DNA of 64,000 nucleotides from positions 44 to 64,043 of the forward strand of contig JBASCT010000022.1 in NCBI GenBank assembly GCA_049651785.1, written 5' to 3'. The notes under the pieces were generated by a model. It saw nothing but the letters and a program-made list of their open reading frames with translations. It made no database searches and had not been told where the DNA came from. The position numbers and the translations under genes are program-made. Each line of letters begins with the position of its first letter. Position 1 is the stretch's first letter. This document shows positions 3,033-54,703 of the stretch, one piece after another. Source of the DNA: Minisyncoccia bacterium. GTDB lineage: Bacteria; Patescibacteriota; Minisyncoccia; Phycocordibacterales; Zambryskibacteraceae.

Positions 3033-3935
3033 TCAAGCCCGGCGGCGAGAATGGAACTTTTTGTGCGTCTCCTTAAGCTGACGGTCGGTGACGTGAGTAT
3101 AAATCTGGGTGGTCGCGATATTGGCGTGGCCCAAAAAGACTTGAACGCTTCGGAGGTCGGCGCCGTTTGAGAGGAGGTCGGTCGCGAACATGTGGCGGAT
3201 GACGTGCGGAGTCACTTTCTTCGAAATGCCGGCTTTTATAGCGTAGTGCTTGATGATTCTCTGGGCCGTGCGCGTGGTGACGGGGAAAAGAAAATCGTTG
3301 TCGATATCTTTCCGTTTATCCAAACCTGCCTGCGCAGACAGGTATTTTTTTATCGCCGTCTTGGCCTCGGGAGAGAGAAAAACAAGGCGAACCTTATCGC
3401 CCTTGCCCCGAACACTGAATTCGTCGCCGGAAAGATCGAGGTCGCGCGGCAGGGAACAGAGCTCAGAGACACGAAGCCCGGTGGAAAAAAGAGTTTCCAA
3501 GAGTGCTCTGTCCCGAAGGCCGTTTTCTTCTGAGACATCGGGCGCCTCCAAGAGACGCGTAAGTTCTTCGGGGGTTATGAGGTCTATAGAGCGCTCGCCA
3601 ACCTTGGCCAGCTCTATGGCTTCGGGTGAAAGGGTTTTAAACCCGCGTTTGGCGAGATATTTAAGAAACGCGCGCAGGGCGATGAGATAGTAATTCTGGG
3701 TTTTTTTCTTGAGTGTGTCGTTTTTGGCGGGCTGTCTATTGAGCCAGAGCCGGTACTCGCGCAAGATGTTCGGCGTAATCTCGCTTGTTTTTTTCGCCTT
3801 GGAATAGGAGAGGAATCGAGAGAGATACCGGTCGTAATTTTCTACTGTCTTTAGGCTCCGGCCCTTTTCTATCTCGGTGTATTCCAAGAATTCGCGCTTG
3901 AGTTGTTCGAGCTCGAGTGTCGCCATGTCGCACAA
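3033..3935 (-). CDS. xerC: Tyrosine site-specific recombinase, XerC/XerD family
   Basis: 300 aa; C-terminal catalytic signature HVIRHMFATDLLSNGADLRSVQVFLGHANIATTQIYTH (R..H..R..Y). Confidence 0.85.
   Translation of the reverse strand: MCDMATLELEQLKREFLEYTEIEKGRSLKTVENYDRYLSRFLSYSKAKKTSEITPNILREYRLWLNRQPAKNDTLKKKTQNYYLIALRAFLKYLAKRGFKTLSPEAIELAKVGERSIDLITPEELTRLLEAPDVSEENGLRDRALLETLFSTGLRVSELCSLPRDLDLSGDEFSVRGKGDKVRLVFLSPEAKTAIKKYLSAQAGLDKRKDIDNDFLFPVTTRTAQRIIKHYAIKAGISKKVTPHVIRHMFATDLLSNGADLRSVQVFLGHANIATTQIYTHVTDRQLKETHKKFHSRRRA
3325..3342. repeat. Copy of dispersed GC palindrome (CCTGCCTGCGCAGACAGG, one arm mismatch), inside the xerC coding sequence
   Basis: Direct reading; shares the CTGCCTGCGCAG core with copies at 8715, 32488, 33704 and 54688. 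Confidence 0.6.
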
Positions 3936-3996
3936 TATTATAACACGCTGAGATGGGTGGGTTGCAAAGTGTCGAGAGTTGTGCTATTATCAATAA

Positions 3997-4263
3997 GTGA
4001 TTTCGAAAACCAAGAAAGCAAAGCTCATTTCGGAAACCCGTATTCACGAAAAGGATACCGGTTCTCCGGAGGTGCAAATTTCCATATTGACGAATCGCAT
4101 TGAGGAATTGGCCAAACACCTAAAGACTCATGCCAAAGACAACCACTCGAGACGAGGGCTCCTTGCCATGGTCGCAGACCGCCAAGCTCACATGAGATAT
4201 TTGGAAAGGAAGAATCCGAAACGCGCCTCGGCTCTGCAGAAAAAACTTGGTTTGAAGAAATAA
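3997..4263 (+). CDS. rpsO: 30S ribosomal protein S15
   Basis: 88 aa; TGSPEVQISILTNRIEELAKHLKTHAKDNHSRRGLLAMV matches the conserved S15 core. Confidence 0.9.
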   Translation: MISKTKKAKLISETRIHEKDTGSPEVQISILTNRIEELAKHLKTHAKDNHSRRGLLAMVADRQAHMRYLERKNPKRASALQKKLGLKK

Positions 4264-4316
4264 CACGGAAATTTTACTTAAAGCTTCCGGGAATTTATCA
4301 GTATTTAGAAATTTAA

Positions 4317-4859
4317 ATGACAGTAATAAAACACAAAGCCCAGCGGGTCGGAATTTTTATAGACACGCAGAATGTTTACCATAGCGCGAAGAACATTCAC
4401 CACGCCAAAGCCAATTTCTCGGCTATTGTCAAAGACGCCTTAGCCGGACGCGTCCTAATCCGCGCCCTAGCCTACGTCGTCACGACCGAGTCGGGTGAAG
4501 AGAGCGCCTTCTTCGGCGCCCTTGAAAAGGCGGGGATTGAAATCCGCTCCAAGCCCTTACAAGTCTTCTTGGGCGGCGCCAAGAAAGCCGACTGGGATGT
4601 CGGGCTCGCCATAGACGCCGTTATCATGGCGCCCAAAGTAGACAGCATCATCCTTCTCTCCGGCGACGGCGACTATGTGCCTCTGGTTGAATATCTTCAA
4701 AATACTCACGGCTGCCAGGTCGAAGTGGTCGCCTTCGGTAAATCGGCTTCGGCACGCCTCGTCGAGGCGGCCGACGACTTCCTCGACCTTGACCAGAATC
4801 CGAGAAAATATCTTCTCAACAGCGCCGGCCCCAGAGTTCGTGAAGGTGGCTCAAGATAA
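4317..4859 (+). CDS. NYN-domain (LabA/PIN-like) protein
   Basis: 180 aa; RVGIFIDTQNVYHSAK ... ILLSGDGDYVPLV ... QVEVVAFG is the NYN/LabA-like arrangement of conserved acidic residues. Confidence 0.7.
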   Translation: MTVIKHKAQRVGIFIDTQNVYHSAKNIHHAKANFSAIVKDALAGRVLIRALAYVVTTESGEESAFFGALEKAGIEIRSKPLQVFLGGAKKADWDVGLAIDAVIMAPKVDSIILLSGDGDYVPLVEYLQNTHGCQVEVVAFGKSASARLVEAADDFLDLDQNPRKYLLNSAGPRVREGGSR

Positions 4860-4873
4860 GTTAAAATAGAGAG

Positions 4874-5713
4874 ATGGATAAGGAAGAGTCTCCTCTCAAA
4901 CAAATCCGCACCTATCAGGGTGACGTCGCCGAAGCGCTCAAAAAACAACGCGAATCTCTTTTCTCCGTTCAGCAAAAGGAACAGGCCAAAAAATCGGGCA
5001 GTCTTCGAGTCGAGCTGAGTCCCGATCGGAGGCGCCAACTTATTTCTCTCTCGCTTTGGAGTCTCGTTTTAATAGGGCTTGGCAGTCTTGGCGGCTGGTT
5101 TGCCTACAACGAATTCGCGAGAAAGACCGTCGCGCCGCCTCTCGAAGTGCCGGCCTCAAGATTTATCTTCGCCGGTAATGAAATAGAACTAACTTTGGAA
5201 GAAATTACGAGAACAGCACTCGTACAAAAAGTTACCGAAGCCGCGCGAGGGACGCCAAGAGGTGAAATAAGACATGTCGTTATAAAAAGAGCCGACGGCA
5301 TCCTTCTTCCAACCGAAGAATTTTTGCGAGCTCTTGAAATAACGGCGCCCGGCTACCTCATCCGAGCTTTTGGACCGCTCTTTATGTTCGGCGCCCTGGG
5401 AGAAGATAACTTTTTGATGATAAAACTTGTTTCGTTTGAAAGCGCCTTCGCCGGTATGCTTGCTTGGGAGAAAACGCTGGGACAAGAAATCGGACCGCTC
5501 TTCTCGACGGCCAATCTGTTGTTAAATCTCCCGTCGGGAGAACCTTTCACTGACCTGACCGACAGAAATAAAGATATTAGAGTGCTCGCAATGGGCGAAA
5601 ACCGCATCTTGCTCTACACGTTTTTTGAAAGCGACACTTTGGTTATAACCGAGAGTCTCGAGGCCATAAGAACCTTGGTCGATCGTCTCACTCAGGAAAA
5701 ACTTTCGCGCTAA
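4874..5713 (+). CDS. Membrane-anchored hypothetical protein
   Basis: 279 aa; one TM helix (LISLSLWSLVLIGLGSLGGWFAY) after a charged N-terminal segment. No recognisable domain. Confidence 0.5.
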   Translation: MDKEESPLKQIRTYQGDVAEALKKQRESLFSVQQKEQAKKSGSLRVELSPDRRRQLISLSLWSLVLIGLGSLGGWFAYNEFARKTVAPPLEVPASRFIFAGNEIELTLEEITRTALVQKVTEAARGTPRGEIRHVVIKRADGILLPTEEFLRALEITAPGYLIRAFGPLFMFGALGEDNFLMIKLVSFESAFAGMLAWEKTLGQEIGPLFSTANLLLNLPSGEPFTDLTDRNKDIRVLAMGENRILLYTFFESDTLVITESLEAIRTLVDRLTQEKLSR

Positions 5714-5737
5714 GCTCCTCTCTGCTAATATTGGGGC

Positions 5738-6097
5738 ATGCAAAGAGACCCGGAACACTTCAAGAAGAAATTGGAGGCGGAGAAAAAGCTTTTGGCCGAA
5801 GAGCTGGAAAAGGTCGGCAGACGAAATCCCGATAACCTCTCGGACTGGGAGGCGACTCCGACCGACCGCGACAGCTCACAGGCGGATGAAAACACCTTGG
5901 CTGATTCCGTCGAGGAATATGAAGAGAACCTAGCAATCGTTAACACTCTGGAGAGACGCTACCAGGAGATTAGAGATGCCTTAGCCAAAATAGAGAAGGG
6001 TACATACGGCCTCTGCGAGGTCTGCAGTGAGCCCATAGATGACAAAAGGCTTGAGGCCAATCCGTCCGCAAGATTCTGTCGCCAGCACATGAAATGA
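5738..6097 (+). CDS. DksA/TraR-family C4 zinc-finger protein
   Basis: 119 aa; coiled-coil N-terminus and C-terminal CEVCSEPIDDKRLEANPSARFCRQH (CxxC-x17-CxxH/C) as in TraR/DksA. Confidence 0.7.
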   Translation: MQRDPEHFKKKLEAEKKLLAEELEKVGRRNPDNLSDWEATPTDRDSSQADENTLADSVEEYEENLAIVNTLERRYQEIRDALAKIEKGTYGLCEVCSEPIDDKRLEANPSARFCRQHMK

Positions 6098-7623
6098 GCT
6101 TTTCGAGAGTCTATAGCGCGCAAACAAATCTTTTATCGGTCGTGCCAGTCTCGGTTGAAACGGATATTTCCCGCGGGCTCAACGCCTTTGCCGTCGTGGG
6201 ATTGCCCGACAAGGCGGTAGAGGAGGCGCGCGACAGAGTTTCGGCCGCGATAAAAAACTCCGGCTTCGATTCTCCGAAATCGAAGAATCACAAGGTCGTG
6301 GTCTCGCTCGCCCCCGCCGACCTCAAGAAGGAGGGCCCGTCCTTCGACGTCGCCATCGCCCTCTCCTACCTCTTGGCCAATAAAGACATAGCTTTCGACC
6401 CGGAGAAAAAGTTATTTCTGGGCGAGCTGGCTTTAGACGGTAAGGTGCGAAGGGTCTCCGGCATCTTGCCAATCGCCCGCTTCGCCAAAAAGAATAATTT
6501 TAAAGAACTTTTCGTGCCACTTGAGAATGTCTCCGAGGCGGCGATTATCGACAGTATCGATATTTTCGGCGTCTCGACTCTCGCGGACCTCGTTGAGCAC
6601 CTCGGCAACAAGAAAAAAATTGAAAAAGCCAGAGAGACAAAGGTTGATAAAATAAAGGCAACGTCAGCCATAGACTTCTCTGACATCAAGGGGCAAGAGC
6701 GCGCCAAGCGCGGCCTCCTCATCGCCGCCGCGGGGGGACACAATGTCGCCATGTACGGACCACCGGGCACAGGGAAGACCATGCTTGCCAAGGCCTTCGC
6801 TGGAATTTTACCGGAACTCTCGTTCGAAGAAGCGCTCGAAGTTACAAGTATTCACTCTGTCGCGGGTACCTTGTCGGAAACTTTCATCACCAATCCGCCC
6901 TTTCGTGCGCCGCACCACACCTCCTCATATGTCTCACTTGTCGGCGGGGGAACGACGCCGAGACCGGGAGAGATAACCCTCGCGCATTACGGCGTCCTTT
7001 TCATGGACGAGTTTCCCGAATTTGACAGACGAGTTATCGAGAGTTTGCGCCAGCCCTTGGAAGACAAGCTTATCTCCGTCGCGCGCGCCAAGGGCACGGC
7101 GCATTTCCCGGCGAATGTCTCGCTCGTTGCCGCCATGAACCCCTGCCCTTGCGGCAATTTCGGCTTCAGAGGCAGGCCCTGCGTCTGCACGCCTTCGGCT
7201 CTCTCGAAATACAGAAGAAAAATGTCGGGACCGATTATGGACAGGATTGATATCTGGCTTGAAGTGGATCGGGTGGTGCCAAGCGAGCTTTCCGGAACAG
7301 TCTCCGGCGCGAGAAGCGAGGAGCTTCGTCAAAGGGTTGAAGAGGCGCGAGGGCGGCAGCGCGCGCGATTTGAAAAATTGGGCAAAAAAATTTTAAGGAA
7401 CGCGGAAATGTCGGCGCGCGACATGACCTCAATCGTCAATTTGGATAAAGAGTCAAGAAAAACTCTGGACCTCGCCGCCGAGCGGCTGGGCTTCTCGCCC
7501 CGTGTTTATCACCGGATGATAAAAGTTTCGCGCACTATCGCCGACCTTGAGGGAAGTGCCGAAATTAAAAATGCCCACATTCTCGAGGCGATAGAATACC
7601 GTCCGAAAAAGTTTGATCTCTAA
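6094..7623 (+). CDS. comM: Mg-chelatase-like AAA+ ATPase, YifB/ComM family
   Basis: 509 aa; N-terminal Lon-protease-like domain, Walker A GPPGTGKTMLA, Walker B VLFMDEFPEF, and a C-terminal ChlI-like domain. Confidence 0.9.
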   Translation: MSFSRVYSAQTNLLSVVPVSVETDISRGLNAFAVVGLPDKAVEEARDRVSAAIKNSGFDSPKSKNHKVVVSLAPADLKKEGPSFDVAIALSYLLANKDIAFDPEKKLFLGELALDGKVRRVSGILPIARFAKKNNFKELFVPLENVSEAAIIDSIDIFGVSTLADLVEHLGNKKKIEKARETKVDKIKATSAIDFSDIKGQERAKRGLLIAAAGGHNVAMYGPPGTGKTMLAKAFAGILPELSFEEALEVTSIHSVAGTLSETFITNPPFRAPHHTSSYVSLVGGGTTPRPGEITLAHYGVLFMDEFPEFDRRVIESLRQPLEDKLISVARAKGTAHFPANVSLVAAMNPCPCGNFGFRGRPCVCTPSALSKYRRKMSGPIMDRIDIWLEVDRVVPSELSGTVSGARSEELRQRVEEARGRQRARFEKLGKKILRNAEMSARDMTSIVNLDKESRKTLDLAAERLGFSPRVYHRMIKVSRTIADLEGSAEIKNAHILEAIEYRPKKFDL

Positions 7624-7665: not shown

Positions 7666-8508
7666 CTAAAATGGATTCTTCGCGCCACGAACTTCAAAGT
7701 GAACATGTGGCCCTGTTGAGCGACCGGAGCTACCGACGGCCCCGATAGTTTCTCCCTGTGATACGACTTGCCCAACCGAGACATTCACTTTCGAGAGATG
7801 GCCGTAGAGCGTTTGCGTGCCATTGTCATGTCGGACGACGATATAGAGACCGTAGCCACCGTTATAACCGGAGGGTCTGGAAACGATAACCGTGCCTGCG
7901 GCCGAAGCAAAAACGGGCGTTCCCATGGGGGCGGCGATGTCAACGGCGTTGTAGCCGTGTATATTCTGGCTTTTCTTCCCGCCGACGATGGGTCGCATAT
8001 AGTATCCCGCGTAGGTTGGGTAACTCGAAGAGCTACCGGATTGGGCGAGAGTCGTAGGGGCGTTTACGATACCGCCAGGAATAATGATGACATCTCCGGT
8101 TTTGAGTTTGGAGTCCGCGGCAAGACCGTTATATGAAAGGACGTCGTCAAGATCGGCCTTATATTTGGTAGTAATAGATTTGAGCGTGTCGCCCGACTTC
8201 ACGATGTGGCGGACACCCGAGATCGGCAGGATGACGAGCTCCTGACCCTCTTTAATAGTAGAGCCGCGAAGGCTGTTCGCCCAGATAATCGTGTTTCTTG
8301 ATACTCCGAACATCTCGGCGATCTCGCCAAGCGTATCACCCTTGCGGACGACATAGACGCTGATCTCGCCCGTGCCGGATTTGCCAAGGTCAATGAAGAT
8401 GTCGCCCGCGCCACCATAAGATTCGAGCGCCACTTCATCAACGATAATAATTTCGGCTCCGCCCGTGCCGGTCGGATTAATATTGAGATAGCCCTCAAGG
8501 AGGGCCAT
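7666..8508 (-). CDS. Peptidase M23 with two LysM domains. It probably extends upstream by about 45 codons encoding a signal anchor, with no canonical start codon.
   Basis: Two LysM motifs (GDTLGEIAEMFGVSRNTI; GDTLKSITTKYKADLDDV) and the M23 HxxxD...HxH core (GYNAVDIAAPMGTPV...GPHVHFEV). The in-frame upstream reading KKKGLKATVLVALFLFAPLSLAAF runs to 8640. Confidence 0.85.
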   Translation of the reverse strand: MALLEGYLNINPTGTGGAEIIIVDEVALESYGGAGDIFIDLGKSGTGEISVYVVRKGDTLGEIAEMFGVSRNTIIWANSLRGSTIKEGQELVILPISGVRHIVKSGDTLKSITTKYKADLDDVLSYNGLAADSKLKTGDVIIIPGGIVNAPTTLAQSGSSSSYPTYAGYYMRPIVGGKKSQNIHGYNAVDIAAPMGTPVFASAAGTVIVSRPSGYNGGYGLYIVVRHDNGTQTLYGHLSKVNVSVGQVVSQGETIGAVGSSGRSTGPHVHFEVRGAKNPF

Positions 8509-8714: not shown

Positions 8715-8735
8715 GCCTGCCTGCGCGGGCGGGGC
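8715..8735. repeat. Degenerate copy of the GC palindrome family (GCCTGCCTGCGCGGGCGGGGC)
   Basis: Direct reading; intergenic between the M23 peptidase and pcrA. Confidence 0.4.
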
Positions 8736-8828: not shown

Positions 8829-10823
8829 GTGTCGGAAATGGCCGGAAAAAAGGGCGAAAATCTTAACCCCGAGCAGAGACGGGCGGTGCTTTTGACCGAG
8901 GGACCGCTCTTAATCCTTGCCGGCGCGGGCGCCGGCAAGACCAAGACCATTGCCGAGAGAATCAGACACTTGGTAACAAAAGGGGTTGCGCCGTCAAAAA
9001 TTTTGGCCATCACCTTTACCAACAAAGCGGCGCGCGAGATGCGGGAGAGAGTGGAAAATATTTTGAAAGAAGACAAGGAATTAAACAGGCCGATATCAAG
9101 CGCCGAGCGGCCGTTCGTCAGCACTTTCCACTCGCTCGGGGTCCACATTCTTAGGGAGCAAGCCGCGAACCTTGGCATCAAAAAATATTTTTCCATTTTC
9201 GACCGTGATGATTCAAAAAAGGCGGTTAAAGAGGCGCTTCTCGCGCTCGGCTTTGACCCAAAAACACATGAACCGGGTAAAATTCTCTCGATAATCTCGA
9301 AAGAAAAGGGTGCCGGCAGGAACTTCGAGAACTATGAGGCCTCGCGGCACGGCTACTTCGGGAAAGTGGTCGCGGCAGTCTGGCCCGAATATGACAAGGC
9401 GCTCAAAAGAGAGGGGGCGCTCGACTTCGACGACCTTATTTTGAAAACCCGTGACCTCTTGCGGACCAGGGATGATGTCAGGGATTACTATCAGAATGTC
9501 TGGAGTCACATCCACATCGACGAATATCAGGACACCAACCGCGTTCAGTACGAGATCTCGCGCCTTCTTGCCGACAAACATAAAAATATTTGCGTTGTCG
9601 GGGACGCCGACCAGAATATTTACTCCTGGCGCGGTGCCGAGATAAAAAATATTCTTGATTTCGAGAAGGATTATTCGAATACCTCGGTGATTGTCCTCGA
9701 GGAGAACTACCGTTCAACGAAAAATATCCTTGAGGCGGCAAATAATGTGATAGAGAAGAATAAAATCAGGCGCGAAAAAAATCTTTTTACCGCCAATGAA
9801 GCTGGCGAGAGGATAAGTCTTCTCGCGGGCTTCGATGAGGCGAGCGAAGCGCTCTTGATCGCCGAGAAAACTGGCGAACTCATCCGTGGCGGCACCTTGC
9901 CGGGTGAGATTGCGGTACTCTTCAGGGCAAACTTCCAATCGCGGGCGCTCGAAGAGGCGTTCATGAATCTCTCAATTCCCTACGAGCTTGTCGGCACGCG
10001 CTTTTTCGAGCGCAAGGAAGTCAAAGACATAATTTCTTACCTGCGCCTCGCCCTCAATCCCGAGAGTCTCTCCGATTTTAAGCGGGTGGCGAACGTGCCG
10101 ACGCGGGGCTTGGGCAAAACAAGTATTCTTAAAATCGCGATGGGACAAGAGGGGACTCTGCCGCCCGCCACAAAGAGAAAATTAGAGAGTTTCAGGACCC
10201 TTCTTAAGAGAATCGAAAAGGTGGCGCAGGAGAAAAAACCTAGTGAAACAATCGCTTTTATCATCAAAGAGACGGGCCTTGAAGAGGAGTGGAGGCCCGC
10301 CCGACCGAACGGTCGTTCGGGCGGGGGGGGTGGAGACGAAGGACTTTCGCGCCTTGAAAACGCCTATGAGTTGGTGAATTTCGCTTCAAGGTACGATGAA
10401 GTTGGGCCAGAGCGTGGAGTCCTTGAGCTCCTCTCGGAGGTGGCTCTGCAGAGCGACCAAGATAATATGCGCGAAGACGGTAGTGCCGTGCGCCTTATGA
10501 CAGTACACGCCTCCAAGGGGCTCGAGTTCGATGTTGTTTTCATCACCGGTTTGGAAGAAGGGCTCTTCCCGCATTCAAAAGTCGATGATGACGAGACGGC
10601 GCCCGAAGAGGCCGAGGAGGAGCGGCGGCTTTTCTATGTGGCACTCACCCGCGCGAGGAAAAAGGTTTTCTTGACTTACGCCGAGACAAGAAATATTTTC
10701 GGCTCGCGTCAGGTGGGTCTGCCTTCCACATTTCTCTCGGACATTCCGAACAAACTTTTTGAAGAAACTCTTACTAGTGAGCATGGTGGCGAGAGAAGGC
10801 CGCTTCTCGAAATAGAATTTTAG
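8829..10823 (+). CDS. pcrA: ATP-dependent DNA helicase, UvrD/PcrA/Rep family
   Basis: 664 aa; motif I GAGAGKTKT, motif II DEYQDTN, and motifs V/VI (TVHASKGLEFDVVF; LFYVALTRARK). Confidence 0.9.
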   Translation: MSEMAGKKGENLNPEQRRAVLLTEGPLLILAGAGAGKTKTIAERIRHLVTKGVAPSKILAITFTNKAAREMRERVENILKEDKELNRPISSAERPFVSTFHSLGVHILREQAANLGIKKYFSIFDRDDSKKAVKEALLALGFDPKTHEPGKILSIISKEKGAGRNFENYEASRHGYFGKVVAAVWPEYDKALKREGALDFDDLILKTRDLLRTRDDVRDYYQNVWSHIHIDEYQDTNRVQYEISRLLADKHKNICVVGDADQNIYSWRGAEIKNILDFEKDYSNTSVIVLEENYRSTKNILEAANNVIEKNKIRREKNLFTANEAGERISLLAGFDEASEALLIAEKTGELIRGGTLPGEIAVLFRANFQSRALEEAFMNLSIPYELVGTRFFERKEVKDIISYLRLALNPESLSDFKRVANVPTRGLGKTSILKIAMGQEGTLPPATKRKLESFRTLLKRIEKVAQEKKPSETIAFIIKETGLEEEWRPARPNGRSGGGGGDEGLSRLENAYELVNFASRYDEVGPERGVLELLSEVALQSDQDNMREDGSAVRLMTVHASKGLEFDVVFITGLEEGLFPHSKVDDDETAPEEAEEERRLFYVALTRARKKVFLTYAETRNIFGSRQVGLPSTFLSDIPNKLFEETLTSEHGGERRPLLEIEF

Positions 10824-10842
10824 TAATCTAGCCAACGCCCCC

Positions 10843-11523
10843 GGTTGACACGGTTGACGCTCGGTGTCAACATGAGAGAATAAATTCATGAGAAATATCA
10901 GGTTGGCGGAAGGTGAGTTCTATCACGTCTATAACAGAGGCGTAGACAAGAGGGTGGTCTTTTCTAATAAAAAAGACTTTGATCGGTTCTTGGAGGGTAT
11001 GAAAATATTTAACACGAAAGAAAATGTGGGTAACTTAACTCGCCACAGCAGTACAGAGGGAGAAGAAAAATTGGTTGATTTTGTTGCTTATTGTATTAAC
11101 TCGAATCATTTCCATTTTCTAATTACACCTCTAACAGAAAAAGGGTTGGAAAAATTTATGCACAAATTGTGTATGGGGTATTCGAAATATTTCAACGCAA
11201 AATATCATAGATCAGGCGCTCTTTTCCAGGGAAAATTTAAGGCCATCCATGTTGATACCAATGAGTATTTGTTGCATCTCAGTGCTTATGTAAATTTGAA
11301 CGAAAAAGTTCATAGACATGAGGGGAACAGTAGGTCCAGTTGGGAAGAGTATGCAGAAAGCGCTACAACTGGTTTATGTAAAAAAGACATTATACTTGGT
11401 CAATTTAAAAATCGAGGCGAATATGTAACGTTTGCTAAAAAAGCACTAAAACATATTGTTGATAAAAAATTATCCTTAAAAGACTTGGAATCCAACTCAT
11501 ATCCGTTGACACTCGGTGTCAAC
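10843..11523 (+). mobile_element. IS200/IS605-like element: Y1 (HUH) transposase gene flanked by subterminal hairpins
   Basis: Left end GGTTGACACGGTTGACGCTCGGTGTCAAC (10843-10871); right end GTTGACACTCGGTGTCAAC (11505-11523). The roughly 680-bp size matches IS200. Confidence 0.6.
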
Positions 11524-11541
11524 ATAAAGATAAAGAAATGA
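10888..11541 (+). CDS. tnpA: IS200-like / REP-associated tyrosine (Y1, HUH) transposase
   Basis: 217 aa; HUH motif NSNHFHFLI and catalytic tyrosine region HLSAYVNLN. The stop overlaps the rsmA start (ATGA). Confidence 0.75.
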   Translation: MRNIRLAEGEFYHVYNRGVDKRVVFSNKKDFDRFLEGMKIFNTKENVGNLTRHSSTEGEEKLVDFVAYCINSNHFHFLITPLTEKGLEKFMHKLCMGYSKYFNAKYHRSGALFQGKFKAIHVDTNEYLLHLSAYVNLNEKVHRHEGNSRSSWEEYAESATTGLCKKDIILGQFKNRGEYVTFAKKALKHIVDKKLSLKDLESNSYPLTLGVNIKIKK

Positions 11542-17008: not shown

Positions 17009-17392
17009 ATGATAATTGATGCAAAAATCAAAACCTTTAGGGATCTAAAAGTCTGGCAAGAGGCTCATAAGTTAGTGCTGGAAATATACAAAGTTACCAA
17101 AAGTTTTCCCAAAGAAGAGTCGTTTGGTCTAACTAGCCAGCTTAGGCGAGCATCGGTGTCTATAACCTCGAACATTTCCGAAGGTTTTAACAGAAGTTCT
17201 GCCAAAGAAAAACTACAGTTTTATTACATTGCCCTCGGTTCGCTCGCCGAGGTTCAAAATCAATTACTAATAGCGAAAGACATAGGTTATATAAAGCCAG
17301 AAATGTCTGATAAAATAGAAGAGCAGTTGATCGTGGCACAAAAATTGCTTAACGGTTTTATAAAAAGTACCCGTTCATTCTCCGAATCATGA
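17009..17392 (+). CDS. Four-helix-bundle protein of the type encoded in 23S rRNA intervening sequences
   Basis: 127 aa; FRDLKVWQEAHKLVLEIYKVTKSFPKEESFGLTSQLRRASVSITSNISEG is the characteristic signature. Confidence 0.75.
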   Translation: MIIDAKIKTFRDLKVWQEAHKLVLEIYKVTKSFPKEESFGLTSQLRRASVSITSNISEGFNRSSAKEKLQFYYIALGSLAEVQNQLLIAKDIGYIKPEMSDKIEEQLIVAQKLLNGFIKSTRSFSES

Positions 17393-32365: not shown

Positions 32366-32448
32366 CCCGTTAGAGATTAATCATGTTGTTCTAATAAGAG
32401 GCATTATATAACTTCGGAAGCGCTAGCGCTTCCTATCTCTAACGGGAC

Positions 32449-33695: not shown

Positions 33696-33703
33696 TGCTG
33701 GAC

Positions 33704-33720
33704 TCGCCTGCGCAGTCAGG
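33704..33720. repeat. Degenerate copy of GC palindrome (CGCCTGCGCAGTCAGG)
   Basis: Direct reading. Confidence 0.4.
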
Positions 33721-38997: not shown

Positions 38998-39434
38998 GAG
39001 ACGAGTTTTATCACAAAGACCTTTTCGGCGCGGTTGTGGACTTCTCTCCCAAAGAGGAAGAAGAAAAGCCCCTTTTTGACAAAAAGGGCAGAGAATTTAA
39101 TATTTTTATCCTAACGGACGCCTTGGGTGCCAGAAATAAAAAAGAAGCTTGGACTCTTTACCAGAAGGCCTTGGCGGCCGGGGTCTCGGTCGATGAAATA
39201 TTTTTCAAAATTTTCTGGCAAGTGAAATCTATGCTTCTGGCTTCAAAAACGAAGGGTGTCGCCGAGACCGATATGAAGCCATTCCCCTACAACAAAGCCA
39301 AAGGTTACGCCAAAAACTATTCTCCCGAGGAGCTAGAAAACCTCTCACAAAGTCTTGTCGAGGGCTATCTCCTGGCCCGCCGCGGCGAAGGGGAGATTGA
39401 GACCCTGCTCGAAAAAATACTTCTTAAACTATGA
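38994..39434 (+). CDS. Hypothetical protein coupled to polA
   Basis: 146 aa; ATGA overlap with the polA stop; no confident family. Confidence 0.4.
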   Translation: MRDEFYHKDLFGAVVDFSPKEEEEKPLFDKKGREFNIFILTDALGARNKKEAWTLYQKALAAGVSVDEIFFKIFWQVKSMLLASKTKGVAETDMKPFPYNKAKGYAKNYSPEELENLSQSLVEGYLLARRGEGEIETLLEKILLKL

Positions 39435-39452
39435 AAATGCTATGATTGTTGT

Positions 39453-40646
39453 ATGAATAACGACCCCATTGGCAAGAATGGTAACGGGCTAGCTGATGTG
39501 GAACCAACTATTTTCAACCGTAATCAAAAATTAAAGAAACTTTTAATAATACTCTCTGCTTCTGTGTTGTTGAGTGTATTTATTTTATTTAAAAACGATA
39601 CCCCCTTTTCCTCTCGGCTTGTGCCGTCTGAGAAATTAGCACCACAATTACAAGAAGGCATCGACAATGCTAGTACTAGCGAACCTATAATACTAACCGC
39701 CCGAGGCGAGGGCGGCTATGTGATTAAGGATGGAATTCTTTATTACTTTTCTCGCGAGGTGCCCGGTGTTGATATTGCGACCCTTGAAGTTATTAACGAT
39801 TATTGGGTTAGGGATAAAAATAATGCCTATAATGGAGAAAAAATTTTTGACCATGATGAGGTAGATGTTGGGTCTCTTGAAATTCTTGATGGATATGTCA
39901 TCAAAGATAACAAAAATGTTTATTCCACTATTGGTGACAAACTACAAATTGTTCCAAATGTTGATATAACAAGCTTCCAATATGTTGGAACTTGTAAAGG
40001 GTTTTCAGGTGCCCGCGGCGAAAACTATTTTCGAGACAAGTTTAATATATACCATGCAACATATGGACAAGATTTCGCTCCAAATTTTTCGATTAAAAAA
40101 TTAGATTATATAGATACTTCATCGTTTCAATATTTAGGTTTTTACTCCCCCTTTGGACCAGGGGAGATACAGCCCTCGGTGCCCTACGCGAAGGATAAAA
40201 ACAATATCTACTATGCCTGCGGCGAGATTTTAAAAGACGCGGATCCAAATAGTTTTATAGACTTTACAGACGGTTATGCCAAGGATAAGTTAACGGTTTG
40301 GTATTTGGGCGAATTGATTGAGGGAGCAGATTCGGCGACATTTCAACCATTAACTACTAAATATTACCATAACGGATATTACTGGGGTGATTTTTACGCC
40401 AAAGACAAATCAAATGTTTACGTTGGAGGCCACGTTCTTGGTGACCTTGATCCCGCGACACTTGTAATTGTTGAAGGGTGGCTCCTGGAGGACCAAGTAT
40501 TTACTATCTACTTAAAAGATAAAAATTATGTTTACGCAGCTGCTGGTTACAAAGTAACTGGAGTTAATCCCACAGACTGTACTCCAGAAACATTCTCAAA
40601 GTGCAAAAACGATGATTACCAGAGATACAATCTAGGGCCCTTCTAG
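39453..40646 (+). CDS. DKNYY-repeat membrane-anchored protein
   Basis: N-terminal TM helix; at least seven repeats of (K/R)DKNN(I/V)YY-type units (KDKNNIYYA, KDKSNVYVG, KDKNYVYAA...). AT-richer than the flanking core genes. Confidence 0.65.
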   Translation: MNNDPIGKNGNGLADVEPTIFNRNQKLKKLLIILSASVLLSVFILFKNDTPFSSRLVPSEKLAPQLQEGIDNASTSEPIILTARGEGGYVIKDGILYYFSREVPGVDIATLEVINDYWVRDKNNAYNGEKIFDHDEVDVGSLEILDGYVIKDNKNVYSTIGDKLQIVPNVDITSFQYVGTCKGFSGARGENYFRDKFNIYHATYGQDFAPNFSIKKLDYIDTSSFQYLGFYSPFGPGEIQPSVPYAKDKNNIYYACGEILKDADPNSFIDFTDGYAKDKLTVWYLGELIEGADSATFQPLTTKYYHNGYYWGDFYAKDKSNVYVGGHVLGDLDPATLVIVEGWLLEDQVFTIYLKDKNYVYAAAGYKVTGVNPTDCTPETFSKCKNDDYQRYNLGPF

Positions 40647-40667
40647 TGCGCCCAGTAGCGGTCGAAC

Positions 40668-41498
40668 CTAGTTTTTAAAGGATTTAATTGCTTGAGCAAG
40701 CAGAATTTGTTTTTCCAAGGGTTTCTTCCAAACGCTATTTAAGCGTCTCCCATTCAATCTAACTCCCGGAGAAAAATTAATTTCTTCCTGAAACTTCTGC
40801 ATATTTTCTTTTCTGCTGATTACCACCTCGTTTGGTCTTAACACTCTCGATTCAATATTAAATTCCGAAAGAAGTTTTTGGATCAGAAAAAGTCTCGAGA
40901 CATCTTTTTGGTAGCCCCTTATTTGTCTTAAATTTCTCTTAGGCCTGAAATCCATGCAACCCTCATCATCAAAAAAAGCCCTAACAAACTCTTTTTTCAA
41001 AGCTTTGGGTAGTCGATAAATAACTTTCAGCAATTCTTTTGATTTTATTTGTAAATAAGCTCCTAGGGCCACGTTATGATAACTAATACGAGATACTCCC
41101 GTTGTTGTATTCACCCACCGCCGAGGCGGGTAATTGTAAATCTCTTTCATACAGTTTTCTACCATGTCGAGCAACGACTGATTTCGGTTGTTATAGACAC
41201 AGCTAGTCCTGCTTATTGTCCCATCAAAAATTAGATGAGCCACAAGCAAGACAGTTTTCTTCTCCCATCGGTCAAATTTCTTGAAATCCCTATCACTTTT
41301 TCCCCTTCTAGCTAAGGCAAGATTTTTTGCTCTGACACCACTAGCAGTACGAATTGATTTTATCTTTTCTGCGCCCAAGGGGATGTGGTGAATGTGAGAA
41401 TAAACTGAAGTTTTAGAGCGTCCGGTAATTTTTACTATTTCTGTTAAGGTGTGGCCCGACTTGCGTAAATTGAGGCAGCGCTTCTTAAAATTATTCAT
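40668..41498 (-). CDS. HTH + double-motif LAGLIDADG-like homing endonuclease family protein
   Basis: N-terminal HTH (LRKSGHTLTEIVKITGRSKTSVYSHI) and two LAGLIDADG-like motifs (LVAHLIFDGTIS; VRAFFDDEGCMDF). Start codon 2 nt from the tRNA-Lys 3' end. Confidence 0.65.
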   Translation of the reverse strand: MNNFKKRCLNLRKSGHTLTEIVKITGRSKTSVYSHIHHIPLGAEKIKSIRTASGVRAKNLALARRGKSDRDFKKFDRWEKKTVLLVAHLIFDGTISRTSCVYNNRNQSLLDMVENCMKEIYNYPPRRWVNTTTGVSRISYHNVALGAYLQIKSKELLKVIYRLPKALKKEFVRAFFDDEGCMDFRPKRNLRQIRGYQKDVSRLFLIQKLLSEFNIESRVLRPNEVVISRKENMQKFQEEINFSPGVRLNGRRLNSVWKKPLEKQILLAQAIKSFKN

Positions 41499-41499
41499 G

Positions 41500-41570
41500 T
41501 CCCCCCACCAGGAATCGAACCTGGATCAGCGGATTAAAAGTCCGTTGCTCTACCACTGAGCTATGGAGGG
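41500..41570 (-). tRNA. tRNA-Lys (anticodon UUU)
   Basis: Manual cloverleaf CCCTCCA-TA-GCTC-AGTGGTA-GAGC-A-ACGGA-CTTTTAA-TCCGC-TGAT-CCAGG-TTCGATT-CCTGG-TGGGGGG-A; no encoded CCA. Confidence 0.8.
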
Positions 41571-41673
41571 TTACCTTAATAGGATAACAGACGCAGGTTC
41601 TATTAATCTCACTTTCTGTGGATAATCACAAAAAGTTTTAAAACTATACCTAAAAACAAGACTTCTGTCGATA

Positions 41674-42078
41674 TTAAAGCGGTATATCTAGGGCGTAGCC
41701 ACCGGCTCCAGTTACAAGAAGAGAAAGCGAGATGACGAAAATGAATAGGTAGAAAACGACATCGCGTTTAAGAATCTCGCGCGCCTTCCATTCTATGTAA
41801 AGCTCAAGCCCTGAAAAAACTACGAAAGCAAGGGCCACCACTTGGGTCCAGAGGCCGATGATAAGAAAGAAGCCGCCGACAATCTGGAGCACTGCGTAGA
41901 AAGGCACGAAAAAATTTGCTGGTCGCAAGCCCAGAGCATCAAAACTCGAGAGCCAGCCCTCTTTTTCCCCGCGGAGCTTAAGAATACCGAGGTCGATGAA
42001 CAGAAGTCCGAGCACGAGGCGCAAAATAAGCGGCGCCAGAGCCGAATACATCAGGAGTTCGGGGAAAGGATTAAGCAT
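41674..42078 (-). CDS. DoxX-family membrane protein
   Basis: 134 aa, 4 TM; N-terminal LILRLVLGLLFIDLGILKL is typical of DoxX. Confidence 0.75.
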   Translation of the reverse strand: MLNPFPELLMYSALAPLILRLVLGLLFIDLGILKLRGEKEGWLSSFDALGLRPANFFVPFYAVLQIVGGFFLIIGLWTQVVALAFVVFSGLELYIEWKAREILKRDVVFYLFIFVISLSLLVTGAGGYALDIPL

Positions 42079-42574: not shown

Positions 42575-43473
42575 TTGCCTGCCCGCCGACGAGGCGGGTA
42601 GAGTTTCTGGTGCTTGTTGCAGAAGTGAGTACTTCTCGAACCAATTACGAGGCGCTCCATTTTTCCTCGGCAGCCGGGTTTCAGACATCTTTCTCCCGTT
42701 CGCTGATAGGCCCTGTGATGGTTCTGAAACTTGCCCTTGCCACCCTCAATATTTCGGTAATCGGAGGTTGAGTCTCCACCAAGATCTAGGCCCTTGCGCA
42801 AAAGCTCTTTCATCGCCCGAAAAGAGAGCTTCAAATTTGTTTCCGGAATTTTATCCGGGTGGGAGAGAGGGTGAATTCCCGCCCGCCAGAGAATTTCGTC
42901 GGAATAAATATTACCGATGCCCGAGATTAAGCTCTGGTCGAGAAGAACCTGCTTAATTTTCCCCCTTGGGCGCAAGAGGAGACGCCTCCTGAAATCCGGG
43001 AAGCCAAAATTTTTATCCAAGGGTTCGGGTCCGAGGTTTTGGAGGTGCGGGGAACGGTGGAGCGCCTCTGTTCTGACAACAGTCACTTTGGCGAATTTTC
43101 GCAGGTCGGAGAATAACAGATCTTTGCTGTTGTCGAGGGCGAATTTCAGACGGACAAACTTGGTTTCCGGCCTGTCGTAGACGAAGTGCCCTGTCATTTT
43201 CATATGGACGATGATAGTTTCTCCGCCTGCTTGCCCCGAGCCCGGTTGAGGGGAGAGATGGATTAAGATGTTTTTTGCCCTTCTTTCTGCTCTAAGAATC
43301 TTTTTGCCCACGATGCGTCTCCTAAAATTTAGAAAAAACTTTGGATCCTTAATATTATCTTTGCCTTTGTGATACTCACTTCGGTAGTCAGTAGTAACGC
43401 TAAGGATTTTCTTTCCTTTTACCGTTCTGTTTAGTCCTTTGACCGTAGTTTCTACTTCCGGCAGCTCAGGCAT
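42571..43473 (-). CDS. mutM: Formamidopyrimidine-DNA glycosylase
   Basis: MPELPEVETT N-terminus (catalytic P2/E3) and C-terminal zinc finger CLKPGCRGKMERLVIGSRSTHFC. Confidence 0.9.
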   Translation of the reverse strand: MPELPEVETTVKGLNRTVKGKKILSVTTDYRSEYHKGKDNIKDPKFFLNFRRRIVGKKILRAERRAKNILIHLSPQPGSGQAGGETIIVHMKMTGHFVYDRPETKFVRLKFALDNSKDLLFSDLRKFAKVTVVRTEALHRSPHLQNLGPEPLDKNFGFPDFRRRLLLRPRGKIKQVLLDQSLISGIGNIYSDEILWRAGIHPLSHPDKIPETNLKLSFRAMKELLRKGLDLGGDSTSDYRNIEGGKGKFQNHHRAYQRTGERCLKPGCRGKMERLVIGSRSTHFCNKHQKLYPPRRRAGK

Positions 43474-51112: not shown

Positions 51113-51120
51113 TTTGCTAG

Positions 51121-51194
51121 TGCGCGCTGAGGGATTTGAACCCCCGGCCTACTGTGTGTAAAACAGTCGCTCTAACCAACTGAGCTAAGCGCGC
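51121..51194 (-). tRNA. tRNA-Val (anticodon UAC)
   Basis: Manual fold GCGCGCT-TA-GCTC-AGTTGGTTA-GAGC-G-ACTGT-TTTACAC-ACAGT-AGGCC-GGGGG-TTCAAAT-CCCTC-AGCGCGC-A. Confidence 0.8.
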
Positions 51195-51275
51195 GTGCTT
51201 CAGTTATACACTATTATTCTTAAAGCAACAATATTAGACTGGAGTAACTCATACTAGGTATGTTATACTTTACTT

Positions 51276-53379: not shown

Positions 53380-53393
53380 AATGTGTTAGATTA

Positions 53394-53795: not shown

Positions 53796-53827
53796 GATTG
53801 AAACACGCCCTCCTTCGCCGAGGCTTC

Positions 53828-53911
53828 GGACGGGCAATGCGCGGGTGGCGAAATTGGTAGACGCACTACCTTGAGGTGGTAGCGCTGGCAACGGCGTGGA
53901 GGTTCAAATCC
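53828..53911 (+). tRNA. tRNA-Leu (anticodon GAG)
   Basis: Manual fold GCGCGGG-TG-GCG-AAATTGGTAGA-CGC-A-CTACC-TTGAGGT-GGTAG-long variable arm-GGAGG-TTCAAAT-CCTCT-CCCGCGC-A. Confidence 0.75.
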
Positions 53912-53924
53912 TCTCCCGCGCACT

Positions 53925-54473: not shown

Positions 54474-54487
54474 AACGGAGAATTAAT

Positions 54488-54560
54488 GGCGGCTATAGTT
54501 TAGTGGTAGAACTCCAGCTTGTGGAGCTGGTCGCGAGAGTTCGATTCTCTCTAGCCGCCC
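54488..54560 (+). tRNA. tRNA-His (anticodon GUG) with genomically encoded G-1
   Basis: Manual fold G(-1)-GCGGCTA-TA-GTTT-AGTGGTA-GAAC-T-CCAGC-TTGTGGA-GCTGG-TCGCG-AGAGT-TCGATTC-TCTCT-AGCCGCC-C; G-1 pairs with discriminator C. Confidence 0.8.
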
Positions 54561-54570
54561 AAGATACAAA

Positions 54571-54600
54571 AATGTCTGTTCTTACGACAGGCATTTTTGT
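54571..54600 (+). terminator. Terminator hairpin AATGTCTGT-TCTTACG-ACAGGCATT + TTTTGTT after tRNA-His
   Basis: Direct reading. Confidence 0.6.
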
Positions 54601-54617
54601 TATCTTTGTCTTGTTTA

Positions 54618-54635
54618 GGAGAGAGAATCGAACTC
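54618..54635. repeat. Inverted partial copy of the tRNA-His T-arm (GGAGAGAGAATCGAACTC)
   Basis: Reverse complement GAGTTCGATTCTCTCTCC matches tRNA-His 54536-54552 at 16/17 positions. Confidence 0.6.
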
Positions 54636-54687
54636 GGGAAGGGGGTCGGGGAAACTCTAGTTTCCCCGTGGAGGAAGGCAGGGCGAT

Positions 54688-54703
54688 CTGCCTGCGCAGG
54701 CAG
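54688..54703. repeat. Perfect 16-nt GC palindrome CTGCCTGCGCAGGCAG
   Basis: Direct reading. Confidence 0.7.

Follow-up and report, generated by a model that had tools for sequence, protein, structure and literature searches.

An 18-bp palindrome dispersed through a 64-kb stretch of a metagenome-assembled genome of the Minisyncoccia (Parcubacteria, CPR; hereafter the window) is best explained as a mini-insertion, either the termini-only miniature or the footprint of a family of cassettes encoding GIY-YIG nucleases (probability roughly 0.6). The 16-mer CTGCCTGCGCAGGCAG matches the window five times at three or fewer mismatches (nt 3326–3341, one mismatch; 8717–8732, two; 32490–32505, none; 33704–33719, three; 54688–54703, none), giving two exact copies and three with 1–3 mismatches. 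Dinucleotide-preserving shuffles of the window gave a mean of 0.14 copies, and five were reached in none of 100, which bears out, within the window, the claim of the initial annotation that the palindrome is far more frequent than expected by chance. The half-sites CTGCCTGC and GCAGGCAG were not found in the window outside these five copies. The natural unit is the 18-mer CCTGCCTGCGCAGGCAGG, with halves CCTGCCTGC|GCAGGCAGG or, in another notation, (CCTG)2-CG-(CAGG)2. As first described, two copies lie within ORFs (copy 1 in xerC and copy 3 near the 3′ end of ruvB), while copies 2, 4 and 5 are intergenic. As DNA, the perfect copy forms a stable hairpin (−8.7 kcal/mol), a stability that is lost in copies 1, 2 and 4.

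Copy 1 (nt 3325–3342, CCTGCCTGCGCAGACAGG, 17/18 identical to the 18-mer) is an 18-nt in-frame insertion in a gene for a XerC/XerD-like tyrosine recombinase (nt 3033–3935, minus strand; Phage_integrase, E = 8e-40). Its minus-strand translation is LSAQAG, and it splits a Tyr codon between TA and T. It is missing from P0122–P0126 and from the DNA of L004–L007, and the insertion is missing in all but two of the other 119 homologs listed. Loci L208 and L209 carry the identical variant at the same xerC site, the same-site copies being 18/18 identical despite a flank identity of 73%; in the XerC tree they are patchily distributed, which is compatible with precise loss or repeated gain. Copy 3 (nt 32489–32506), an exact 18-mer, adds 18 nt in frame within the C-terminal tail of ruvB (nt 32449–33498, minus strand; RuvB_N, E = 8e-70), where the 16-mer sits 41–56 nt ahead of the stop codon and encodes LPAQAG (HLG-LPAQAG-KTVP); it is missing from L001–L003 and from all of the other 119 RuvB homologs listed. 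At both sites, the filled and empty forms differ by precisely the 18-mer. The two copies had been described as lying in conserved coding sequences, and the host genes are indeed conserved, but the label is misleading because the copies themselves are lineage-specific insertions of six residues.

The three intergenic copies differ in age and setting. Copy 4 (unit at nt 33703–33720; CTCGCCTGCGCAGTCAGG, 15/18) is a 19-nt insertion in the pilB-ruvB spacer (nt 33702–33720) that is missing from L001, L002 and L003, and a GGACTC direct repeat leaves its exact position uncertain by 6 nt. Copies 3 and 4 are the sole two gaps in a 2.5 kb alignment with relatives at 91% identity. The spacer that separates the divergent M23 peptidase and uvrD genes contains copy 2 (nt 8716–8733, CCTGCCTGCGCGGGCGGG, 16/18), which is older and decaying; its ortholog in L007 reads CCTGCCTGCGCAGACAGG, L004 has none, and the versions in the window and in L007 are both mutated. 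Copy 5 (nt 54687–54704, TCTGCCTGCGCAGGCAGG, 17/18 with an exact 16-mer) lies inside a window-specific insert of ~210 nt after tRNA-His; in the closest relative, L128, tRNA-His runs straight into the upstream hairpins of the GIY-YIG gene without this insert. The xerC, ruvB and pilB-ruvB spacer copies are clean 18–19-nt insertions without counterpart in close relatives, and copy 2 is shared with a more distant one; of the five copies, at least three were gained recently in the source genome. New copies are exact additions of 18 bp, in one case 19 bp, without target-site duplication; older copies decay through point mutation.

An exact scan for the 16-mer returned at least 120 stretches from many genomes, the taxon proportions of which are only indicative. 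Among the 120 matches listed, at least 60 stretches belong to named CPR lineages of many classes, and others to Bacteroidota, WOR-3 and further groups; several genomes have matches on more than one contig. The sites are unrelated, with no homology between loci in their flanks, and no recurring gene family was found near the copies at the loci among the matches listed. Extension to the full 18-mer was seen, among the matches listed, for 77 of 86 at loci below 52% G+C and for only 18 of 37 at loci of 52% G+C or more, so that many matches in the G+C-richer genomes could be due to chance. Chance matches in G+C-rich sequence, or artefacts of assembly or library, are scarcely credible as an explanation of the pattern as a whole. 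All the source data are metagenome assemblies, and extension is poorer in G+C-rich genomes, but this reading is contradicted by the five copies observed against 0.14 expected, by mutated and orthologous copies in independent assemblies from different studies, by the presence of the element in the cultured isolates Litoribacter ruber and Rosettibacter primus, and by a reading-frame bias that is the signature of selection on real sequence. At the loci below 52% G+C (among the matches listed), a purine precedes the 18-mer in 75 of 86 and a pyrimidine follows it in 66 of 86, a bias that persists among non-coding copies; the two flanks vary independently of each other and are random beyond the purine|pyrimidine pair. 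The 18-mer occurs in spacers, tRNA fragments and protein-coding genes, about half of the 77 exact low-G+C copies lying within ORFs of at least 200 aa. LPAQAG is the reading of 27 of the 32 copies in unambiguous ORFs of this size (p = 4e-9), and a copy within a gene is tolerated as a loop of six residues, LPAQAG in nearly every case.

The same data make it very unlikely that the palindrome is a selected functional DNA signal, whether a competence-pilus DNA-uptake sequence, a global-regulator operator, a terminator, or a restriction or methylation target. Such a role would suit the pilus/competence-type genes of the window (PilB, PilM/N, ComM-like), the stable hairpin of the perfect copy and the unusual conservation of the same-site xerC copies within diverged flanks. 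However, copies appear as whole 18-nt insertions and not via substitution, different phyla carry the identical sequence, about half of the copies lie in ORFs with one preferred frame, three of the window copies have lost hairpin stability, and placement relative to genes is inconsistent (divergent spacer, gene tails, tRNA fragments). Uptake sequences (DUS/USS) are lineage-specific motifs that accumulate by substitution and uptake bias, a pattern at odds with whole-insertion origin and with one sequence shared by many CPR classes, Bacteroidota, WOR-3 and others; the DNA-uptake signal suggested in the initial annotation is accordingly set aside. Its further proposals, a restriction-modification or methylation target and a global-regulator site, would each leave unexplained the clean in-frame 18-nt insertions of identical sequence in different phyla.

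The 9-nt halves of the palindrome are identical to the terminal 9 nt at the inverted ends of six GIY-YIG cassettes (282, 285, 291, 291, 300 and 324 nt, each a multiple of three), which carry one single-domain GIY-YIG nuclease in-frame within a host gene (LPAPRP...GIY-YIG...ARQAG). The cassette termini were confirmed in the DNA of L235–L239 (CCTGCCTGCGCCGCG... / ...CGCGGCAGGCAGG), and the T/A variant that copy 1 carries (CCTGTCTGC / GCAGACAGG) is common among them. A single HsdR-like ORF (L099) contains an 18-mer, a 21-mer, a 39-mer and a 291-nt in-frame cassette, every one of which begins CCTGCCTG and ends CAGG. The solo hairpins that adjoin cassettes are 21–42 nt long, in multiples of three, with termini progressively reduced, and a graded series with the same terminal 9 nt runs from the cassette (282–324 bp) through the solo hairpins (21–42 bp) to the 18-mer. 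The shared termini and the graded hairpins make the end of this series, with nothing but termini left, the best reading of the 18-mer. Of 15 homologs of the L099 GIY-YIG domain, 7 have LPAPR(P/R/Q) on the N side and 10 have (A)RQAG on the C side, and their embedding hosts are HsdR, MsrB and proteins resembling HsdS or HsdM. Pfam returned only the GIY-YIG domain for the nuclease, with UPF0213 proteins as the nearest solved structures by sequence (PDB).

According to this best explanation, the 18-mer would be either a derivative that is minimal and non-autonomous or an unvarying footprint that a departing cassette leaves behind. When the DNA is single-stranded, during replication or following uptake, the termini would pair into a hairpin, a cognate Ssn-type GIY-YIG nuclease would recognise the hairpin and cut at its base, and host ligation or repair would seal the junction, allowing seamless gain and loss. 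The putative mobilising enzyme of the 18-mer is thus a GIY-YIG nuclease. Counting against the explanation, GIY-YIG nucleases are hydrolytic and we know of no strand transfer by them. Copy 4, with its 19 nt, three substitutions and 6-nt flanking direct repeat, is a poor fit to a seamless model. The window contains no cassette bearing these termini. Its small GIY-YIG nuclease ORF (88 aa; nt 54864–55130, plus strand) adjoins copy 5, which lies 160 nt upstream, but this ORF is of another subfamily and, unlike the six cassettes bounded by the halves, is not flanked by palindrome termini; 80 loci (269 kb) around its close homologs contained no 18-mer copy. The six cassette loci have no established CPR assignment, whereas most 18-mers are in CPR, and none of the five window copies fits the published SRM search motif. 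A bolder version, which we put forward only tentatively, is that the 18-bp palindrome is the shortest transposable unit observed so far, no more than two 9-nt termini that are excised and pasted without a seam, in single-stranded hairpin form, by GIY-YIG (Ssn-type) nucleases, themselves carried in-frame inside host genes. If true, there would be a class of DNA transposon built on a hydrolytic GIY-YIG nuclease instead of a DDE, HUH or serine/tyrosine enzyme, and the 18-mer would be moving through the candidate phyla radiation and adding LPAQAG loops to housekeeping proteins.

It is rather improbable that the 18-mer is immobile and that each copy is simply the scar of a full cassette removed by cuts 9 nt inside each end. 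Such scars would account for the constant 9+9 junction (77 of 86 at loci below 52% G+C, among the matches listed) and for a reading frame that is the one a cassette needs for translation with its host gene, and the L099 ORF holds cassette, intermediate solo hairpins and 18-mer together. Yet no orthologous site has so far been found where one lineage carries a cassette and another the 18-mer, and the scar version is unproven because no XerC homolog has a full cassette at the xerC insertion site. An in-frame cassette would gain nothing in spacers and tRNA fragments, where many of the 18-mers are found. Moreover, most 18-mers are in CPR, and no such cassettes were observed among the CPR loci fetched.

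There is a precedent in small GIY-YIG Ssn nucleases, which cut single-stranded DNA beside hairpin repeats that flank their own genes (PMC11893778). Like the six cassettes, though not the GIY-YIG gene of the window, the Ssn NTS/SRM system (Chenal et al. 2025, PMC11893778) has a single-domain GIY-YIG gene bounded by inverted hairpin repeats and, like the 18-mer, these repeats are also dispersed through the genome. Compared with the quoted consensus (PMC11893778), the NTS core CCCGCGCAGGCGGG differs from CCTGCGCAGGCAGG by one compensatory pair, both NTS and 18-mer translate as ...PAQAG..., and a few copies of the 18-mer (L090, L232) are embedded in NTS-like GTCATTCC...GGAATGAC contexts. Unlike NTS, the 18-mer is a perfect, unoriented 18-bp palindrome without the oriented 5′ CGTCAT tag, and about half of its copies are genic, against 2% of NTS in N. 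meningitidis (PMC11893778); the cassettes also differ from the Ssn system in lying in-frame inside host genes. The SRM search motif HGTCWYN(0-2)YYVSBRHN(0-5)WNVSBRGN(0-2)RNCYNB had no matches on either strand of the window (mononucleotide shuffles, mean 0.35).

Alternatively, the 18-mer could be a REP-type hairpin moved by a Y1/HUH transposase (RAYT or IS200-like 'peel and paste'), with GIY-YIG cassettes inserting into or borrowing the same hairpin, but this is unlikely. The single-stranded HUH transposition of IS200/IS605 elements has as its hallmark a seamless insertion that duplicates no target, a trait that the 18-mer insertions share; the fixed tetra- or pentanucleotide target that IS200/IS605 elements have 5′ of the insertion is represented here by no more than the purine|pyrimidine flank. 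The window holds a recently acquired Y1 gene (Y1_Tnp, nt 10888–11541), which weakly matches the NCBIfam model for a REP-associated tyrosine transposase, in a RAYT-like single-gene element (nt 10824–11537, plus strand) with its own flanking hairpins (nt 10846–10873 and 11505–11523). Each of the Y1 genes in CPR loci has flanking near-perfect palindromes of the same size class (17–25 nt), copies of which are found even within ORFs, and two of three Y1 homologs of palindrome loci lie ~200 nt from an 18-mer. However, the window gene is itself a recent insertion of ~715 nt whose hairpins (GTTGACRC-TCG-GTGTCAAC) differ from the palindrome, and for every Y1 gene inspected (window, L046, L050, L094, L200) the cognate hairpin is a different one and never the CCTG palindrome. 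Near palindromes, Y1 homologs show no enrichment (3 in 960 kb, versus 1 in 353 kb of control DNA), and the REP tag GTAG or CGTC is absent from the 18-mer. The local HUH transposase, of which the palindrome had been proposed as a substrate, is not supported as mobiliser, given its own, different hairpins and this lack of enrichment.

A REP-like nature, also suggested initially, broadly holds in that the copies are insertions, present or absent among relatives, and the sequence is dispersed at unrelated sites in many genomes. Like REPs (Di Nocera et al. 2013, PMC3733652), the 18-mer is a short, G+C-rich, multicopy palindrome, and its hosts xerC and ruvB, together with uvrD and polA as hosts of a second palindrome family, parallel those of intragenic REPs, some of which are in-frame, notably in DNA replication and repair genes (PMC3733652). 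As an 18–20-bp palindrome with five copies in 64 kb it agrees with the short multicopy form of REPs, although the 18-bp unit falls below their usual 20–40 bp. The likeness fails in other respects: no GTAG/CGTC tag is conserved beside the 18-mer (only a purine before and a pyrimidine after), no RAYT (Y1) gene flanked by it was found among the window Y1 gene and four homologs, and placement is not predominantly extragenic, two of the five window copies and about half of the 77 being in ORFs. The 18-mer also lacks the dimer or BIME organisation of REPs and, unlike them, is found mainly in CPR.

As in MITEs, the termini are shared with a putative autonomous element, the 9-nt halves being GIY-YIG cassette termini, but this partner encodes a GIY-YIG nuclease and not a known transposase. 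Target-site duplication of the MITE kind was not found at the xerC and ruvB sites, copy 4 alone having a 6-nt direct repeat, and 18 bp is, to our knowledge, far below the size of any described MITE. Organellar G+C-cluster and short palindromic elements, like the 18-mer, insert in-frame in genes and are tolerated as extra peptide segments. Rickettsia palindromic elements (RPE) are roughly 100–150 bp in size and are described in Rickettsia, whereas the 18-bp element occurs across CPR classes and several other phyla. RPE resemble the 18-mer as in-frame genic palindromes tolerated as extra peptide (PMC3733652). The ShiLan element, described as an in-frame homing insertion in a phage methylase (PMC11855218), resembles the full-length cassettes, with an HNH nuclease in place of GIY-YIG.

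The palindrome is genuine and occurs far in excess of chance. With up to three mismatches, the 16-mer CTGCCTGCGCAGGCAG matches the window at five sites (nt 3326, 8717, 32490, 33704 and 54688), two of them exact, as against a mean of 0.14 in dinucleotide-preserving shuffles, none of which (0/100) gave five copies. The excess claimed in the initial annotation is thereby upheld, as is its placement of the copies relative to genes. Copy 1 (nt 3325–3342) lies within a tyrosine recombinase gene (xerC, nt 3033–3935, minus strand) and copy 3 (nt 32489–32506) near the 3' end of ruvB (nt 32449–33498, minus strand), 41–56 nt ahead of the stop codon. The other three are between genes: copy 2 (nt 8716–8733) in the spacer of the divergent M23-peptidase and uvrD genes, copy 4 (nt 33702–33720) in the pilB/ruvB spacer, and copy 5 (nt 54687–54704) downstream of tRNA-His. 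The window is part of a 71,477-bp contig of a Minisyncoccia MAG (Parcubacteria group, candidate phyla radiation, CPR), and its G+C content is 44–52% along its length. As single-stranded DNA, a perfect copy has a folding energy of −8.7 kcal/mol, a stability largely gone in copies 1, 2 and 4. No 8-nt half-sites were found elsewhere in the window, and a larger element with 18-mer termini was rejected there because half-sites are confined to the five copies.

Comparison with related loci shows that the copies are additions to otherwise conserved sequence. The window RuvB (349 aa) reads HLG-LPAQAG-KTVP at copy 3 where its closest relative (97% identity) has HLGKTVP, and the insertion is found in none of the 119 other homologues listed. 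At the DNA level the window is longer by exactly 18 bases than the related loci L002 and L003 (91% DNA identity) and L001. Copy 4 adds 19 bases to a pilB-ruvB spacer that is otherwise near-invariant, and the 2.5-kb alignment with L002 and L003 has no gaps other than copies 3 and 4. Copy 4 has several oddities: its length of 19 nt, three substitutions and a 6-nt direct repeat at its flanks. In XerC, copy 1 gives KKY-LSAQAG-LDKRKD where eight aligned homologues have KKY-LDKRKD (or LEKRKD, LSKRKD), and exactly 18 bases are absent in four related sequences. Deleting the 18-mer from xerC restores ...AAA TAT TTG GAT..., which places copy 1 between bases 2 and 3 of the Tyr codon, without duplication. 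Two copies had earlier been described as lying inside conserved coding sequences; among orthologues, neither the ruvB insertion (missing in the 119 other listed homologues) nor the xerC insertion (missing in the eight aligned) is conserved. Copy 2 is common to the window and a more distant relative (L007) and missing in L004, and both versions have diverged from the consensus. Copy 5 lies within a segment of ~210 nt (nt 54561–54770) that is bordered by a 16-nt direct repeat of the tRNA-His 3' end and is missing in the closest relative, L128. This insert also contains an inverted T-arm fragment and several G+C-rich hairpins, and resembles what is left of an element that had integrated at the tRNA. 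A structured RNA at copy 5 was rejected, since Rfam searches at gathering and permissive thresholds returned tRNAs only.

The palindrome is an insertion element, and not a binding site for a regulator or a DNA-uptake signal, both of which had been proposed. The same site may be occupied in distant lineages. An 18-mer identical to the xerC copy (18/18, asymmetric T included) lies at the same nucleotide in the XerC genes of loci L208 and L209, which belong to a different clade and share only 73% DNA identity with the window gene. Closer XerC relatives in both clades are without it; for so patchy a pattern on the XerC tree, the 18-mer must have been gained more than once at a single site or else lost precisely from several lineages. 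Same-site 18-mers also occur in a topA-like ORF of two loci (L023 and L066) and, in four lineages, at one common position of a broken, duplicated tRNA-Gln fragment (...TCG followed by TCTAATGG...). Free-standing small GIY-YIG ORFs are seen beside tRNA-Gln genes with partial tRNA duplications in other genomes (L044, nt 1700–2110; L059, nt 6730–7200; L112, nt 6180–6620; L064, nt 360–490).

Searching one genome per species for the exact 16-mer gave at least 120 stretches. At least 60 of the 120 listed belong to named CPR lineages (WWE3, Saccharibacteria, Microgenomates groups and many Parcubacteria groups, including Zambryskibacteria), and the non-CPR stretches among the matches listed include Bacteroidota, WOR-3 and two cultured isolates (Litoribacter ruber and Rosettibacter primus). 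One Sphingobacteriales MAG has the 16-mer on at least five contigs. The calculated per-site probability of the 16-mer is ~3e-11 at 40% G+C, so the CPR matches cannot be due to chance. Among the 86 matches listed from loci with less than 52% G+C, 77 extend to the 18-mer CCTGCCTGCGCAGGCAGG, the base 5' of which is a purine in 75/86 and the base 3' a pyrimidine in 66/86; sequence beyond these two flanking bases is random. The flanking bases were rejected as arms of a 20-nt palindrome (28 complementary pairs vs 26.5 expected, no covariation), and the bias is also present in copies outside long ORFs; they thus represent a site preference and not a part of the repeat. Long ORFs contain about half of the copies. 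The 18-mer is free of stop codons in all three frames, and in 32 unambiguous ORFs of at least 200 aa it is read as LPAQAG in 27, as PACAGR in 5 and as CLRRQ in none (p = 4e-9 vs equal frames). A larger common element around the copies in other genomes was rejected, as all-against-all comparison of flanks gave a few orthologous or paralogous pairs and otherwise unrelated sequence; clustering of neighbouring ORFs returned housekeeping families only, and no recurrent gene family. A scan of a viral collection found 25 stretches, mostly in high-G+C phages; one gene lying between two palindrome copies encodes no enzyme, being a structural gene. Full-text literature searches gave no mention of the 16-mer or of LPAQAG, and keyword searches on palindromic or in-frame insertions in CPR/Patescibacteria gave no description of the present element.

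Two genes of the window were weighed as mobilisers. The first is a Y1/HUH gene (nt 10888–11541; Pfam Y1_Tnp, E = 8e-8, with a weak NCBIfam match to REP-associated tyrosine transposase), which the initial annotation had suggested might use the palindrome as its substrate. It forms a RAYT-like single-gene element (nt 10824–11537) whose insertion of ~715 nt separates uvrD from ksgA; the element is missing in L004 and L007 and is bordered by its own hairpins, GTTGACRC-TCG-GTGTCAAC. Homologues in other CPR loci are each accompanied by a different near-perfect palindrome of 17–25 nt, sometimes also found in an ORF. With different hairpins of its own and homologues that are not enriched near the 18-mer, the HUH transposase was rejected. 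The second, a small GIY-YIG gene (nt 54864–55130), is 160 nt from copy 5. It too was rejected as a partner, as no 18-mer (up to three mismatches) was present in 80 metagenome loci of close homologues (269 kb). The gene belongs to a different subfamily from the cassette nucleases described below and tends to adjoin tRNA genes with partial tRNA duplications.

Elsewhere, the termini of the 18-mer are those of small nuclease cassettes. In a WOR-3 MAG (L099), one HsdR-like ORF of 1170 aa carries four related insertions: the 18-mer, a 21-mer (CCTGCCTGTCCGGCAGACAGG), a 39-mer (CCTGCCTGCCGCGCCGC-TTCACTT-TGCGGCGCAGGCAGG) and an in-frame segment of 291 nt that codes for a GIY-YIG domain, starting with CCTGCCTGC and ending with GCAGGCAGG. 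In the first 15 of 34 homologues of this domain, the hosts are HsdR, MsrB and proteins resembling HsdS or HsdM, and the domain is flanked by LPAPR(P/R/Q) on the N side in 7/15 and (A)RQAG on the C side in 10/15; three more homologues use another frame of identical termini. The termini (CCTGCCTGCGCCGCG... and ...CGCGGCAGGCAGG) were confirmed in the DNA of five further loci. Together with L099 (nt 6788–7078), these are L235 (nt 854–1138), L236 (nt 5081–5380), L237 (nt 5027–5308), L238 (nt 10047–10337) and L239 (nt 7941–8264); in ascending order, the cassettes measure 282, 285, 291, 291, 300 and 324 nt, every length being divisible by three. The cassettes lie in-frame in host genes, mostly type I restriction-modification subunits (the MsrB case, P0254, is at the protein level only), and have inverted termini of ~15 nt at their borders. 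In L235 the host gene has its first ~20 codons twice, so an intact copy comes after the interrupted one. Adjoining solo hairpins of 27, 30, 33, 39 and 42 nt have the same stem base as the cassettes. The 18-mer consists of the outermost 9 nt of both cassette ends, joined; LPA-QAG is the N-side signature fused directly to the C-side signature, and the frame preferred by the 18-mer is the one that lets the host gene and the cassette nuclease be translated together. The asymmetric variant in copy 1, CCTGTCTGC (complement GCAGACAGG), is frequent among cassette termini and therefore need not be a private mutation. No full cassette was found at the xerC site, where longer XerC homologues contain other duplications. 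Termini common to both in other genomes suggest a link between the window 18-mer and the GIY-YIG cassettes.

The nearest described systems are the Ssn proteins, small single-domain GIY-YIG nucleases that are site-specific for ssDNA and bind NTS/SRM hairpin repeats, which border the ssn genes and are scattered in hundreds of copies; the authors likened NTS-ssnA-NTS to an insertion sequence, an IS-like origin being put forward as a hypothesis only (Chenal et al. 2025, PMC11893778). The NTS core CCCGCGCAGGCGGG and the present element CCTGCGCAGGCAGG are one compensatory pair apart and, as with the NTS, a few copies in other genomes are embedded in GTCATTCC...GGAATGAC. Unlike the NTS, the window copies have no oriented CGTCAT tag, nor does the window contain any match to the published SRM search pattern; for these two reasons the element is not classed as an SRM, which it may resemble in its way of working. 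Tagged REPs, some of them intragenic in replication or repair genes, have also been described (Di Nocera et al. 2013, PMC3733652). Unlike these, the 18-mer carries no tag and is without a RAYT partner. The earlier REP-like reading holds as far as an insertion element of the hairpin-repeat kind, and fails on the tag and the RAYT partner. The element resembles a MITE as a derivative reduced to the termini and differs from one in the absence of target duplication. At 18 bp it is also far below typical MITE size.

The element is a widely distributed insertion that fits best as a new and extremely small member of the hairpin-repeat/miniature-element type, tied by its termini to in-frame GIY-YIG cassettes. 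We infer that it would be cut and sealed on a single strand, directed by the hairpin, and that the nuclease acting in the window genome would be of the Ssn type. If so, a mobile element can be as short as 18 bp and yet spread between phyla, which lowers the known size limit of insertion elements, and the recently described Ssn-type single-strand nucleases would acquire a definite selfish life cycle, made up of the in-frame cassette, the solo hairpins and the 18-mer as end member. Also explained would be a class of six-residue insertions (LPAQAG, PACAGR) seen in RuvB, XerC, GatB and other CPR proteins, otherwise mistakable for lineage-specific protein features or alignment noise, and the nuclease and hairpin pair would be a candidate sequence-specific ssDNA tool.

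Several other insertions and features were observed. An 83-nt MITE-like insertion (nt 32365–32447), with 13-nt inverted termini (TCCCGTTAGAGAT) and an inner perfect palindrome (GGAAGCGCTAGCGCTTCC), lies exactly between the ruvB stop and the yebC start, where an ATGAG-type duplication recreates the ATGA stop/start overlap of relatives; there is no second copy in the window. A second family of intragenic G+C-rich palindromes (30, 36 and 32 nt), with the stem base CCCGCCCGA...TCGGGCGGG, occurs in uvrD (nt 10296–10325), in polA (nt 37879–37914) and in another genome (L122, nt 4093–4124), the uvrD and polA sites being extra sequence in the window by BLAST against relatives. Further window-specific hairpin insertions are found in fpg (nt 42583–42597 and 43228–43251). 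A window-specific segment of ~2.2 kb (nt 39430–41675), unmatched in L001, contains a DKNYY-family ORF and a LAGLIDADG-domain ORF (nt 40668–41498), with an adjacent tRNA-Lys. An ORF of the 23S rRNA intervening-sequence protein/bAvd-like family (nt 17009–17392) lies inside a type IV secretion-like cluster (TrbL/VirB6, PrgI, TraG-like ATPase and T4SS pilin). Between the convergent rplK and thyX genes, a perfect palindrome of 28 nt (nt 63012–63039, AGCCCCGTGACGCATGCGTCACGGGGCT) is probably a bidirectional terminator.
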